Below, piece by piece: positions 40,431 through 64,000 of a stretch of 64,000 bases of DNA; the stretch's first letter is position 1, and the number at the start of each line of letters is the position of its first letter. Source of the DNA: Candidatus Bathyarchaeota archaeon (GTDB taxonomy: Archaea > Thermoproteota > Bathyarchaeia > Bathyarchaeales > Bathycorpusculaceae). Where the stretch lies: positions 1-64,000 of the forward strand of contig CAVZIW010000009.1 of NCBI GenBank assembly GCA_963775465.1. Reading direction: 5' to 3'. Both the position numbers and the translations under genes were made by a program. The notes under the pieces were generated by a model. That model worked only from the letters and a program-made list of their open reading frames with translations. It searched no databases and was not told the origin of the DNA.

Positions 40431-40883
40431 TTGGTTTATTTATTGCAGTCAAAAGACGATTATCCGTACTTGAGCTTCAGGTTTTGGGTCGAAATTGACA
40501 GTTTAGTTGTTGGAGGCTTTTCTGAAGTTTCAGGTCTTCAATCGGAAATCGATCTTGAATCTTATGAAGAAGGAGGAGTAAACGATTACGTTCACAAGTT
40601 TCCAAAAAAGGCTAAGCTCTCGAATTTGGTTCTCAAACGTGGTATTACTCTGATTCGGATACGCTTTGGAAATGGTACGCCAGCGTCTTAAGCGGAAAGA
40701 TAACACGAAAATTGATATCAAATAATATTGGCAGATCGTGAAGGAAACGAAAAATTGAGGTGGGGTATATTAGAAGCCTACCCAGTGAAATGGAGTAGCT
40801 CTGACCTAAAAGCAGACAGCAATACCATCGCCATTGAATCTTTGGAGCTTGTACATAATGGCATAGTTAAGGTGGGAAAATAG
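40431..40883 (+). CDS. Tail tube protein (T4 gp19/Afp1-5-like), one frameshift at ~40650
   Basis: FRFWVEID..GGFSEVSGL..YEEGG.N..LVLKRGIT, then LWKW...AYPVKW...IAIESLELVHNG*. Confidence 0.9.
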
Positions 40884-40906
40884 TCATAGCTAAAACGTGT
40901 GTAGGT

Positions 40907-42723
40907 GTGATTGATCAGAAGTTTACTGAAAAAGTCACAAGCAAATATATCAAACACGCTTTACCTTGGCTCTCGATCTTTCTCAACAAGTTTAACTTCT
41001 TTTTGCCTCCAGAAAACTATGTTTTTGTTATCTCTCCGTTTATTTTCAAAAAGAAAATAGTGACTTTTAATAATTCATTTAATTCAATTTTAGTAAACAG
41101 GTCAAATAGTCTTTTTTTTCCTTCTTCTATGATTCTTCCATCAAAAAGAGAAAACATTAATTCTTTTTTGTCCATTAAATCTATAAACTCCAAATCTTTT
41201 TCATCGACCGTTGTTAACGTTTCAAACAAGATTATTCATTCTGGAAATATATCAAAGGAATATCGTCTTGTTAAAGAGATCTCAAGATATTCTATTTTTA
41301 TGAAAGTTTTGGAAAGAACCGTGGATAACCTTCCTTGCAATAGCGTGTTACACAGGCTAAATTCAGTAATTGCCTGTGACATATTGCAGATAAAATATGT
41401 AGGAAATTTTGCATCCTTGAGAGCTTACTTCCTACGAGAGACACTGTAAAAACGGTAGGCTTGCTTTCAAAAACTGAGATGATTCCAACAGCTTTTGGTA
41501 GAGTATTCAAAAAAATATTACCTTTTAATTGTTCTAATTATTTTTTGGATTTTCAAAATACACGAGTTTTTGAGCAAATCAATAGATTAGAAGGTATCTT
41601 GTCATCACGAAAACAAAACTATATCAAAAATTTTCATCACAAGTTCAATATAAAAAATCCGAGAATCAAAAACCCCATTGCTTCAAGAAAAATTACGAAT
41701 GGGCATAACATCAAACAACCATCTTCAAATGCAAATATTAACTCAATAGATAGAATTAATCACGAAATTAAGTATAAAGAAAAAACGAGAGGTAATCTCC
41801 TATCATATTTTGCTAATCTCGAAAACTTATTTCCAAAATATGCAGTCCCTCAATCCAGAATTTTTTTCAATTCAGTTTACTTTAGTAATTGGATAAACAT
41901 ACAAGCAACAAGAAAAGGGAATCCATTTTTTCGAATTTGCCTTTGTTTTCAAAGTTATCTTTTCTCGATTCTGCGAACAATAAGGCTGTGTTTCAAAAAA
42001 TCGAACACTCAAAAGGCAATTTTCTACGTTTATGGGCGACACCAAGAAGAGAAGTATCTCCGCTGAACCAGTGCGATCAGCAACGACTAATATTGAGTTG
42101 CCAGCGTCAATTGAAAATAGCACAAATAGTATCGAAAGAATAGATTATACAGTTAACAAACATTTGGATTCAGACATTCACCCAACAAATCGTTCAAATT
42201 CTAAACAAACAAAATCTAAAATAACAAAGACAAACACTGAAACAAGCAAAGAACAAAGCGAATTCATCATTAATCACGTCCGTTACCCGAAAACCATAAT
42301 TGTCGAAAAGCAACCCGATTATCCTTCCAGATGCTATCCCAAGTCACCTCTTTATCCCTTCAATCCAGAGAAATACCATGAACCATGAACATCAAAATAA
42401 TGGGTCGAATTACTCTTTGGCAAAGATAGTTGGCACAAATGCAGATAGTAAACCTGAGAATTTGGGAATTTCTGGGCGCCTTCAACCAACTTCGAGAAAT
42501 TCCCCCGAATATGTGTTTGCAAACAAGGGATTGACAACTGAATATATTAGGAAGAAATTGGAAATTGTAGAAGAAACAAGCAAACAGATTGTAAAAAAAC
42601 ATATCACAATTCCTGAGCAAAAAAATGCATTACCATCTATAAATATCGATCGTTCTAGCCGACCAAATCTACAGTTTAATAGAACGGAAAGCCCGAATAG
42701 AAAGAGAGAGAAGAGGTTTATAA
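40907..42723 (+). CDS. Large low-complexity CIS-associated hypothetical protein, fragmented
   Basis: Series of Asn/Ser/Lys-rich ORF pieces ending LADQIYSLIERKARIERERRGL*. Stop overlaps the next ATG (TAATG). Confidence 0.5.
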
Positions 42724-43448
42724 TGTCAGCAAGAGGATACTTGGAAACACAAAAACAAAAGTCAAAGTAGAGTTCTTATTTAACCCTAATGAACTCACTA
42801 TAGAAAAGTCAAACCAGTTTGCTGAAATCAGCATACCAGGACTTCCTTCATCAACTTTTCAGTTTGTAAAAGGGGGTTCAAGGACCTTGAATTTAGATCT
42901 TTTTTTTGACACCTATGAAAAGCGAACTCTCCGACAGACTGGAGAGAAGGGAAGCATCAAAAATGAGGGGGGCAACGTTATTGAGGCAGGAACAGACGTT
43001 AGAGTATTCACAGATCAAATCACGGGCTGGGATACAGGACCAGTGAATAAAACTAAGTCTGATCCCAGGACTTATGGATATAAATGCTGCACTTCATGCT
43101 CCACCTATTTGCAATTTTGTGTGGGGATCTTTCCGATTTCCATGCTTCGTGGAGAAAGTAACAAAAAAATTTACGTTGTTTCTGCCAACAGGAGTGCCAG
43201 TACGTGCAACTCTCAACATATCTCTGCGAGAATATATAGAATTAAAAGATCAGCTCGCAGAAACACCCTCTCGAATCTTTGACAAGACAAAAGTTTGGAA
43301 AGTTAAGCAAGGCGACACACTCTGGCTCATCGCAGAGAAGGAGTATGGCGACCCAGCTCTCTGGAGACCCATAGCTTCATCCAACAAAATTTCTAATCCA
43401 CGTGAACTAAAACCCGGCATAGAACTTATTATTCCTTCACTGGAGTAA
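42723..43448 (+). CDS. CIS tube-initiator protein with LysM domain (Afp7-like), frameshifted
   Basis: FLFNPNELTIEKSNQFAEISIPGL..QFVKGG..LDLFFDTYE; APPICNFVWG; LysM VKQGDTLWLIAEKEYGDPALWRPIA. Confidence 0.88.
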
Positions 43449-62202: not shown

Positions 62203-62820
62203 GGTTGGATCCTTGAAGAAAGCTACTGAATTGCGAATGAGGAGTCTTTCTTTCTCAATTTCTTTAGTTGATTCCTATATAGAAAACCGGCCTATAGGCT
62301 CCCTAAGTGTTTACTTGAATGAAGAGCAATATAAAGCAGTGAAAAATCCTTCCGGCTATTATGTATTTTCAGATATCCATAGAGGCATTTACACACTGCA
62401 TGTTGTTTCTGAATTCTATTTTGAGGAGAGCTTGGATGTGGATCCTCATTCTCTTGATCCTTTGTGTCCAGTTAAAGAAATTAGATTAATTCCTACACCC
62501 GCTTATCCTTTTCCAAGTGGAGCTACGTTAATACGTGGAAGGGTTTTAGATTCGAATAAAAAACCAGTATCAAGTGCCTTCGTTGAAATTAGAGAAAAAC
62601 CTCAGGAGCTTAACAACCCCGAGGGGAGAGTTTATTTTATATTTTCCATCATTGAAGAAAGATCAAGTCAAAATAGAAAGTGGAAAAAGATTTGTTAAAA
62701 ACGGAAAAAGGCATCGAGATTTCTATCACATGCAATTTCCGTGGCAAGAGTGGCATGGTAAGGTTGGATGGTGTAGAAGAAGGAACTAGGAATAATATTA
62801 AATATATCCTATTAAGATAA
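62177..62820 (+). CDS. Carboxypeptidase-regulatory-like (Ig/transthyretin-fold) CIS accessory protein, frameshifted
   Basis: NPSGYYVF, LIPTPAYPFPSGATLIRGRVLD..PVSSA.V; located between cap and sheath. Confidence 0.7.
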
Positions 62821-62840
62821 GGTAAAAGCGGTTTTGAAAA

Positions 62841-64000
62841 ATGCCAGAGTATTTATCACCAGGGGTTTATGTCGAAGAAACAGAGATAGGGGCAAAACCC
62901 ATCGAAGGAGTAAGTACAAGCACTGCTGGCTTCATTGGTCTAACGGAGAGAGGCCCAGAAAAAACTACCCTAGTCACTGGATTCGAGGAATTTCGCAGGA
63001 AATTTGGGGGATACCTTGAAGACTCTTACATGGCCTATGCGGTCGAAGGGTTCTTCAAAAATGGAGGACAAAGATGCTACATTGCAAAAGTAACGAAAAG
63101 TGGTGGTGCTAAAACAGCGAAAACAGTTGTTGGCAACGTTCAATTTACTGCAGTTGGAAAAGGCAGCTGGGGCAATAATATTGCTGTGAGAATTGAGGAT
63201 GCATCGCTTTTCAACCCTAAAGAACCCGAAAAGAAAGGAATTTTATTCAAACTAACATTAATCTATTCAAAAAATCTGCCCATTTCAGACGAAGAGGAAG
63301 AAAAAAAGACAGGGCGCAAGAAAGAGGAAAAAGCTGCCGAAAAAAGTGAAACAGAAAAAGAAGAAACAGCAGCCTTGGAAGCGTCCGCGCAAAAGAGTAC
63401 TGACGAGATTCTTAAGGAAAGCGACGTAGTAGAGGTTTACGATAATGTTTCCATAATTAAAGACTCAGACGACTATTTTGTTAAGAAAGTCAGCAAATTA
63501 TCAAACTTGGTGGATGTAGACTGGGTTAACCCAGGGTCCCCATCTCGACCCAAAAACACTTCAGGCTCAACACTGTTTAAAAAACTTGAAAATGGAAATG
63601 ATGGCGAAGAGCTCAGCAAAGAAGATTTCAATGGCTCAGCAAAAGCTGGAGAAAGGACGGGTCTTAATGCTTTTGAAGAAATAAAGGAAATCTCTATTCT
63701 TTATGTGCCCGATTTGCACAAATTGTCAGAACCAATCAAAGCGCAACTATGGGGTGACCTGAAAGCACATTGCGAAAACCAAAATCGATTTCTCATTCTG
63801 GATGCTCCAAGCAATTTGGCAGACGTAGCAGATATTTGGCCTCCAACTGAAGCCGTATCGAAATATGCTGCATACTACTATCCCTGGATAAAGACGTATG
63901 ACCCACTAACCAAAGACCTAAAATTCGTCCCTCCAGGAGGTCACGTTGCTGGAATCTATGCTCGAAATGACGCGGAACGAGGCGTACACAAAGCTCCTGC
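62841..64000 (+). CDS. Contractile tail sheath protein (partial, runs off the window end)
   Basis: MPEYLSPGVYVEE..KPIEGVSTSTAGFIG..ERGP, FFKNGG, GSWGN and YYPWI..PPGGHVAGIYARND.ERGVHKAP. N- and C-terminal motifs are in the same frame. Confidence 0.95.
   Translation, partial: MPEYLSPGVYVEETEIGAKPIEGVSTSTAGFIGLTERGPEKTTLVTGFEEFRRKFGGYLEDSYMAYAVEGFFKNGGQRCYIAKVTKSGGAKTAKTVVGNVQFTAVGKGSWGNNIAVRIEDASLFNPKEPEKKGILFKLTLIYSKNLPISDEEEEKKTGRKKEEKAAEKSETEKEETAALEASAQKSTDEILKESDVVEVYDNVSIIKDSDDYFVKKVSKLSNLVDVDWVNPGSPSRPKNTSGSTLFKKLENGNDGEELSKEDFNGSAKAGERTGLNAFEEIKEISILYVPDLHKLSEPIKAQLWGDLKAHCENQNRFLILDAPSNLADVADIWPPTEAVSKYAAYYYPWIKTYDPLTKDLKFVPPGGHVAGIYARNDAERGVHKAP

Follow-up and report, generated by a model that had tools for sequence, protein, structure and literature searches.

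Does a member of the Bathyarchaeia carry the genes of a phage-tail-like contractile injection system (CIS), and, if so, could the machine be made from those genes as they have been assembled? The question is raised by a 64,000-nucleotide stretch of Candidatus Bathyarchaeota DNA, hereafter the window, which comprises positions 1 to 64,000 of contig CAVZIW010000009.1 (C9) in assembly GCA_963775465.1 (genome G000; 2.42 Mb in 15 contigs, with an estimated completeness of 92% and contamination of 3.45%), and in which a first-pass annotation had recognised a nearly complete set of tail genes from 40.4 kb onwards. Judged by its gene content, the set is a lineage-II, Afp/PVC-like CIS locus of the extracellular contractile injection system/phage-like protein translocation structure (eCIS/PLTS) type, belonging to a genus of the Bathyarchaeia. 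As assembled, 15 of its 18 core genes (those orthologous to the set in a congeneric genome, G062) are disrupted by about 50 one- or two-base insertions or deletions (indels), and the machine cannot be made from the locus in that form. These breaks are, on balance, attributed to errors of consensus or assembly limited to parts of a genomic island, an explanation held with some reserve; on this explanation the organism probably encodes an intact machine.

Gene content of the locus

Pfam profiles were run on the window's own open reading frame (ORF) pieces, and genes left unmatched were named via colinear tblastn to the intact orthologues in G062 and a second congener, G100. Each part of the previously listed tail inventory was confirmed by one or other of these routes, with all the structural parts on the + strand at the places given in Table 1 and three candidate cargo genes on the - strand. 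From 40.4 kb, the + strand order runs from a gp19 tube through a low-complexity region, a protein with CIS_tube and LysM domains, a gpD-like hub, a Phage_base_V spike, PAAR, and gp25 to two Baseplate_J-like genes, two small baseplate genes (one gpI-like), a fibre-like gene, and an ATPase with a winged-helix domain (WHD) and an AAA domain. The three intact - strand genes, of 792, 362 (DUF4157/eCIS_core), and 745 aa, come next, after which the + strand resumes with a Pvc16_N/DUF4255 cap, a carboxypeptidase-regulatory-like gene, the sheath, a second tube, and a 121-aa gene, the last two lying past the window and ending at 65,317. A sheath, a gp19 tube with its initiator, a spike and baseplate, an AAA+ ATPase with a DUF4255 cap, and a DUF4157 protein are all found, as expected of an eCIS/PLTS-type locus and in agreement with the class first proposed for it; what such a locus would also have, and this one as assembled has not, is open frames for the core genes.

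The gpD-like, both Baseplate_J-like, the gpI-like, and the fibre-like genes gave no Pfam match on the window's own pieces (0/10 in the first set), and in a second run on ORF pieces, seven out of ten remained without a family. They are so named because of colinear tblastn matches to intact orthologues in the two congeners, which carry Phage_GPD, Baseplate_J (twice), and Tail_P2_I. The fibre-like protein is 62-64% identical to residues 15-89 of the 797-aa (G062) and 643-aa (G100) proteins and matched no Pfam family. After frame correction, tube protein 2 shares 89 of 149 residues with the 149-aa orthologues of both congeners by frameshift-aware alignment. In the low-complexity region, frameshift-aware alignment is weak, and the match to the orthologues is limited to the final 22 residues (86-91%); from its position alone, this gene may be tape-measure-like. 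Longer homologues of the ATPase, as represented by the best 120, are all single proteins of 571-942 aa, with a best identity of 83%.

Table 1. Features of the CIS locus and its island, with positions in the window (equivalent to C9 coordinates); Pfam matches are those obtained on the window's own sequence.
Feature	Position	Strand	Pfam match	Remarks
Genomic island with entire CIS locus	34205..64000 (window part); C9:34,205 to ~71,165 (37 kb)	.		defined by blastn against G022
Tube protein 2 (gp19 family)	40425..40877	+	Phage_T4_gp19, 40419-40691, N-half only (profile positions 2-60 of 134)	two frameshifts with three stops between
Low-complexity region, four staggered ORFs	40871..42717	+		slot of the 342-aa (G062) and 323-aa (G100) protein
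Tube-initiator-like protein (CIS_tube + LysM)	42678..43445	+	42701-43448 over two frames: CIS_tube profile 17-86 in one, 97-156 plus LysM in the other	two frameshifts, ~42736 and ~43067
gpD-like baseplate hub	43450..44513	+		three frames; colinear with the G062 360-aa protein carrying Phage_GPD
VgrG/gpV-like spike	44496..45133	+	Phage_base_V, 44446-44661	two frameshifts; in-frame stops at 44659 and 44834
PAAR tip protein	45139..45436	+	PAAR_motif, 45227-45436	one one-base insertion near 45268; 72/97 identical to G062 after correction
gp25-like baseplate wedge	45443..45836	+	GPW_gp25, 45443-45697 (profile 2-54 of 96)	one two-base deletion near 45668
Large Baseplate_J-like protein	45829..49060	+		orthologue of G062 1064 aa; ~13 frameshifts, W-to-stop at 47479
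Second Baseplate_J-like protein	49067..49830	+		orthologue of G062 312 aa; ~6 frameshifts
Two small baseplate genes, second gpI-like	49876..50926	+		orthologues of a G062 189-aa pair; ~3 frameshifts each
Fibre-like protein	50981..52623	+		~4 frameshifts; conserved N-terminal 60-70 residues, remainder diverged
Afp15-type ATPase (winged-helix N-part + AAA)	52716..54817	+	WHD + AAA, 52719-54817; WHD split over two pieces; AAA E=1.1e-29	three frameshifts, ~53100, ~53156, ~53917
792-aa protein, intact	55491..57869	-	no Pfam family	candidate cargo by position only
362-aa DUF4157/eCIS_core protein (HExxH), intact	57915..59003	-	PF13699, E=3.5e-28, 57918-59012	
745-aa protein, intact	59264..61501	-	no Pfam family	candidate cargo; N-terminal leader in common with DUF4157 protein
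Afp16-type cap/terminator (Pvc16_N, DUF4255), intact	61621..62202	+	PF14065, E=5.3e-37, 61579-62199	no frameshift inside by frameshift-aware alignment
Carboxypeptidase-regulatory-like beta-sandwich protein	62213..62805	+	CarboxypepD_reg, 29.5 bits, under the 32.3 cut-off	frameshifts ~62591 and ~62700; same place in G062 and G100
Sheath, intact 551-aa ORF	62841..64000, on to 64490 past the window	+	Phage_sheath_1 (E=1.4e-16) and Phage_sheath_1C (E=1.3e-18), 62838-64490	
Second gp19 tube (tube1)	64502-64945, past the window	+	gp19	
121-aa gene after tube1	C9:64959-65317	+		one-base deletion near 65143 against both congeners

DUF4157 is a marker of eCIS cargo in the definitions given in the accessible parts of two surveys (PMC6899500, PMC8213781), and the 362-aa protein of the locus is the sole PF13699 match in the genome. 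A leader of about 90 aa is shared between this protein and its 745-aa neighbour (46/92 identical, E=7e-19, residues 4-90 and 5-95, BLASTP). No PDB sequence matched the 745-aa protein (searched as a 749-aa frame) or the 792-aa protein (searched as a 796-aa frame), the latter giving a weak Atlas lead, best 0.81.

Extent and kind of the frame breaks

Frame breaks were located with a frameshift-aware dynamic programme written for the purpose, by which the G062 and G100 proteins were aligned to the window. Thirty-two frame changes fall in tube 2, the LysM protein, gpD, VgrG, PAAR, gp25, the large J protein, the ATPase, the carboxypeptidase-like gene, tube1, and the 121-aa gene; about 19 more come from weaker alignments covering 49.1-52.6 kb (second J protein, small baseplate pair, and fibre) and the tape-measure slot. 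The cap and sheath are intact and the three cargo candidates open, and tube1 is open yet runs 49 nt out of frame through a compensated frameshift pair. Long-ORF coverage in the 10-kb segment from 40001 is 0.068, the lowest of the genome's 462 such segments (median 0.72). All 18 cleanly alignable junctions involve one base (13) or two bases (5), as 14 deletions and 4 insertions, and most genes keep 0.86-1.02 of the length of their orthologue. By our own count, about nine of 13 frame excursions return to the original frame, which is no different from chance. An alternative genetic code was rejected, given that the stops within matches are of all three kinds (TAA 14, TGA 13, TAG 7) and that the frames truly shift.

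Consensus errors or real decay

Errors are favoured over real decay, firstly, because nonsense codons are fewer than the substitution-to-indel ratio of the lineage predicts. The non-coding flanks differ from those of the closest congener, G022, by 370 substitutions per 37 frameshift-size indels (10:1), and the probability that a substitution placed at random in the coding sequence of the orthologues yields a stop is 0.046; 15-21 nonsense codons would be expected, and only 3-4 are found in frame alongside 32-45 frameshifts (P(<=4) = 1e-3 to 1e-5). Secondly, the indels are of 1-2 nt only, with no gene-scale deletion, unlike the undoubted CIS remnants of the genus described below. Thirdly, conserved residues are kept within the range of intact homologues: after correction, those conserved across each family (8-70 homologues) are retained at 0.84-0.96, the medians of the intact homologues being 0.77-0.98. 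Lastly, clean and dirty stretches alternate within a single gene, since all three events in the ATPase lie in its N-part and none in its C-half, where the C-terminal 300 aa read without a break; for this half together with the cap and sheath (3.2 kb), the absence of events has P=2.5e-5 under a uniform local rate. That such errors occur in few-contig assemblies is suggested by the G100 locus, otherwise intact, in which the ATPase is read in two frames (G100:C6:766301-768407) owing to an extra base at a C-run, about 25 nt from a break in the window's own ATPase.

The competing explanation, possible if somewhat unlikely, is that the frameshifts are real and the locus is a relic, already dead or becoming so, of a CIS island gained by horizontal transfer, its structural genes inactivated by many small indels and its cargo genes, cap, and sheath held open through continued selection or a recent replacement of that segment. 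Much of what speaks for such a relic also weighs against sequencing error. No homopolymer enrichment was detected, as 10 of the 32 events lie within 4 nt of a run of at least four, against a background of 0.28. The remaining genome is clean: in genome-wide staggered-ORF scans, which are noisy, all four of the other staggered pairs tested proved to be separate genes, and the only other long chain was the ribosomal operon, made up of normal genes. A patch of errors would therefore need to be confined to the island, and this accessory island is absent from the nearest species. Genuine CIS decay is on record in the genus (the sheath remnant of G012, the spike-only remnant of G079, and a tube-AAA fusion on C6 of the present genome), orphan sheath genes are widespread in it, and two single disruptions occur nearby, in a P-type ATPase (~9.9 kb) and in a metallo-beta-lactamase (MBL)-fold gene (36467). 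In the FastTree phylogeny described below, moreover, the window sheath stands apart from those of G062 and G045 and next to ANME-1, which would fit a recently swapped right-hand module. Against the relic stand the deficit of nonsense codons, the absence of any indel above 2 nt among the 18 resolvable junctions where undoubted remnants show large deletions, the retention of conserved residues, and the clean half of the broken ATPase with the cap and sheath, which together reject uniform neutral decay. Branch lengths in three-taxon comparisons do not discriminate, the window's branch being long in most genes, broken and intact alike.

Decidedly doubtful is a further variant, in which the indels are real and arose through a localised, indel-only process acting on parts of the island with hardly any substitutions, silencing the structural genes and leaving the cargo, cap, and sheath open. 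If true, it would amount to a mode of frameshift hypermutation or inactivation not known from archaeal genomes, in a genus of which roughly one species in three keeps orphan sheath genes. In practical terms, gene-by-gene annotation of the assembly would show fragments or pseudogenes, and the locus is unusable until its frames have been checked, for which re-polishing is needed.

Host genome and genomic island

The flanks of the locus identify the host as a member of the Bathyarchaeia, in accordance with the earlier reading of the neighbouring genes as bathyarchaeal. A YchF-like GTPase (21134-22369) shares 84-86% identity with proteins bearing the name Candidatus Bathyarchaeia/Bathyarchaeota, which account for five of the six named entries among its best 120 rows, the sixth bearing the name Ignavibacteria. 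On the left, C9:1-8617 and 20942-34204 are 93% and 95.9% identical to the congener G022 by blastn (its contig C5 for the stretches that border the island); on the right, C9:71166-85873 and 85876-96663 are 94.3% and 94.5% identical. Between C9:34,204 and 71,166, this closest congener holds only about 650 bp of unrelated sequence. The junction at 33.5-34.6 kb, which had been suspected of being chimeric, is accordingly the left edge of an island, because synteny with G022 resumes beyond it at 71166. The island appears to be strain-variable, being lacking in the closest species, and neither a tRNA gene nor a direct repeat of at least 12 nt was found at its edges. Its G+C content is like that of the remaining genome, and its other genes encode proteases, Ig-like proteins, and a TPR/CHAT fragment.

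The possibility that the locus is foreign to the archaeon, through a mis-binned or chimeric contig, is regarded as very improbable. The best full-length sheath relatives do come from Methanosarcinales, ANME-1, and bacteria (53-60%), and some contamination is estimated for the genome; the island nevertheless has 13 kb on one side and 25 kb on the other that run colinear to the congener at 94-96%, matches the genome in G+C, and has the nearest relatives of 16 of its 18 core genes in two congeners, the G062 and G100 loci, on contigs of 385 kb and 945 kb.

That the locus is instead the tail part of a myovirus-type provirus, perhaps a defective one, is scarcely credible: all the parts are phage-tail homologues and the genome has one Terminase_6N (PF03237) match, but this lies on a different contig (C3:316995-317591, in a 429-aa open frame), Phage_capsid (PF05065), TerL_ATPase (PF03354), and Phage_portal (PF04860) gave no match in the genome, 92% complete, in a search that took in no other capsid family, all five of its integrase matches lie off C9, the markers specific to eCIS occur in the locus (a DUF4255 cap, an AAA+ ATPase with a WHD N-part, and DUF4157), and the remaining island genes are those named above. 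The initial observation that the locus is without capsid, portal, terminase, and integrase genes is thereby upheld, and the search for capsid or terminase genes beyond the window, where they would have betrayed a provirus, found none on the contig in these families. The Terminase_6N match on C3 may itself mark a viral element.

Other features were noted in and around the island. A second island occupies C9:8618-20941, where G022 has about 2 kb; the P-type ATPase within it (8830-11167) is split near 9.9 kb into two overlapping frames, with the N-terminus and E1-E2 in one and the hydrolase and C-terminus in the other. The MBL-fold gene (36089-36811), situated between two C25-type peptidase genes, has a single in-frame stop at 36467-36469. 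Ig-like (Big_1/Invasin_D3) domains flank the CIS locus on both sides (39594-40267 and C9:67428-69392), with a mutual identity of about 37%. A crude hydropathy scan gave six hydrophobic segments, besides an Ig-like domain, in the protein at C9:67666-68778, of which no homologue was found adjoining the G062 and G100 loci or in 13 metagenome loci.

Distribution and relatives

Two congeners, G062 (C7:317.7-338.4 kb) and G100 (C6:760.3-780.1 kb), have intact loci in which the genes follow the order seen in the window, with opposite-strand genes likewise placed between ATPase and cap. Homologues of the large baseplate J protein occur in only four of the 119 other species of the genus, close in these two and distant in G017 and G120, and sheath matches at E<=1e-60 occur in 37 of the 119, mostly short (360-390 aa) and often standing alone. 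In an even draw of 400 other genomes from the class, the Pvc16_N cap marker was found in 17, all in the window's own family (17/103; 12/40 in the window's genus and 5/12 in a second genus), and in none of the 297 sampled from other Bathyarchaeia families. A marker limited to one family in this sample suggests a patchy distribution.

The closest full-length sheaths from beyond the genus belong to ANME-1 (60%), Methanoperedens, Methanosarcinales, and anaerobic bacteria (53-60%). No metagenome contig yielded a sheath relative above 60% identity, and in the protein database the closest sheath (a fragment) stands at 76% and the closest ATPase at 83%. In a FastTree phylogeny, which gave long-branch warnings and included 80 rows pre-selected as best matches of the window sheath, the sheaths of the genus fall in several places and that of the window lies beside ANME-1 (SH-like support 83). 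Such scattered placement fits repeated transfer, and the islands at different sites, along with the many remnants, point to repeated gain and loss.

Some of these remnants may be described here. In the present genome, C6:263985-267000 holds a minimal one, consisting of a 387-aa short sheath on the - strand, a 176-aa gp19 tube, and a 396-aa CIS_tube-AAA fusion ORF; it resembles a deletion of about 10 kb and is flanked by radical-SAM and PMT genes. In G012 (C5:34884-35473), a sheath has been cut to three pieces through internal deletions, and in G079 (C13:27647-28935), a lone block of VgrG (with one stop), PAAR, and gp25 is left. The short sheaths, mostly open frames and often alone in about 30 species of the genus, could mean that the sheath has another use.

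To what extent, then, is the locus new? In the accessible parts of published surveys, eCIS are recorded from just one phylum of archaea (PMC8213781; a 2025 survey of metagenome-assembled genomes (MAGs), PMC12210884), and Chen et al. (2019) gave 10 archaeal loci (PMC6899500, as far as the accessible text goes). A literature search, survey supplements excluded, found no description of a Bathyarchaeia CIS locus. The first-pass suggestion of an undescribed system in this lineage holds to that extent, tempered by the intact syntenic loci in the two congeners; taken as wholly undescribed, the suggestion is overstated, for sheath homologues in Bathyarchaeota MAGs, including one of 321 aa, are already in print in the portion available of Evseev et al. 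(2022) (PMC9230969). On the comparisons made here, the locus extends the taxonomic range of a known CIS type and is not unique in the Bathyarchaeia.

Comparison with known systems

Among solved structures, the window sheath matches 9EZM best (E=4.5e-137, in two stretches). According to the available part of its description (PMC11566945), 9EZM is the sheath Cis2 from the CIS of Halogeometricum borinquense, a weapon of this archaeon that is bound to the membrane, depends on contact, and is employed in antagonism with toxin-immunity pairs. This T6SS (type VI secretion system)-like haloarchaeal system thus has the closest solved sheath, and shares with the present locus an archaeal host and a cluster of sheath, tube, baseplate, and spike. 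It resides, however, in a different phylum, and its mode of action rests, in the same partial source, on a six-transmembrane anchor, Hbor_38620. The window locus contains a fibre-like gene, the DUF4157 cargo marker, and an AAA+ ATPase, and its frames are broken as assembled. The earlier remark that no characterised CIS was known in the lineage is consequently to be read beside this characterised archaeal system of another phylum.

The second and third best sheath matches (8BKY and 8BL4; E=4.7e-120 and 7.1e-117) are those of the Streptomyces system CIS-Sc, which the accessible text of PMC10066040 assigns to dbeCIS subtype IId and which resembles the window locus in having two tube paralogues and in belonging to lineage II. 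In that text, CIS-Sc has neither a conventional fibre nor a tape measure and takes part in cell death within its producer; in the window locus, by comparison, a fibre-like gene is present and the tape-measure slot is filled by a long low-complexity gene.

Afp of Serratia (6RAO) and PVC of Photorhabdus (6J0B) have in common with the locus a tube, sheath, LysM initiator, VgrG, PAAR, gp25, Baseplate_J, AAA ATPase, DUF4255 cap, and DUF4157-marked cargo, as judged from the parts consulted of PMC6899500 and PMC8213781, in which Afp8 and Afp11 form the co-occurring core pair of eCIS (Chen et al., 2019; Geller et al., 2021). Their sheath match is weaker (E ~1e-53 to 1e-45, C-terminal part only), and unlike them the window places its cap, sheath, and tube behind the ATPase and the cargo genes of the opposite strand, in an archaeal host. 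Uncharacterised CIS loci in Methanosarcinales, ANME-1, Methanoperedens, and anaerobic bacteria show 53-60% identity in the full-length sheath and 64-67% in the ATPase, and come likewise from the anoxic-sediment type of organism; the archaea named belong to another phylum, and the window's other structural genes are closest to G062 and G100.

Proposed working of the machine

The families of its proteins suggest how the machine would work if its frames were intact. A baseplate of gp25, the two J-like proteins, and the gpI-like protein, with a hub formed by the gpD-like protein and the LysM tube initiator, would, together with the VgrG-PAAR spike, nucleate a tube of the two gp19 paralogues. The sheath would surround this tube, and the DUF4255 protein would cap it with the help of the AAA+ ATPase. 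Contraction of the sheath would then push the tube and spike into a target and deliver cargo, for which the DUF4157 protein and its leader-sharing neighbour are the candidates. By analogy with the systems above, three modes are conceivable: release from the cell as in Afp, anchoring as in the haloarchaeal system, or action in the cytoplasm as in CIS-Sc.

An antagonism or programmed-death machine was first conceived for this stretch; with 15 of 18 core genes disrupted as assembled, the present copy cannot be called a working machine. Should the frames be intact in the cell, the locus, together with those of the two congeners, would represent a complete CIS in the Bathyarchaeia, which are among the most abundant archaea of anoxic sediments and for which no antagonism or cell-death machinery is described in the literature searched.

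A minor observation concerns other genes of the genome, in which pairs of long ORFs in the same frame are parted by one stop (C3:139780-142425, C6:50988-53462, and C2:31929-36947); these stops could be nonsense mutations or recoded stops, read as selenocysteine or pyrrolysine.

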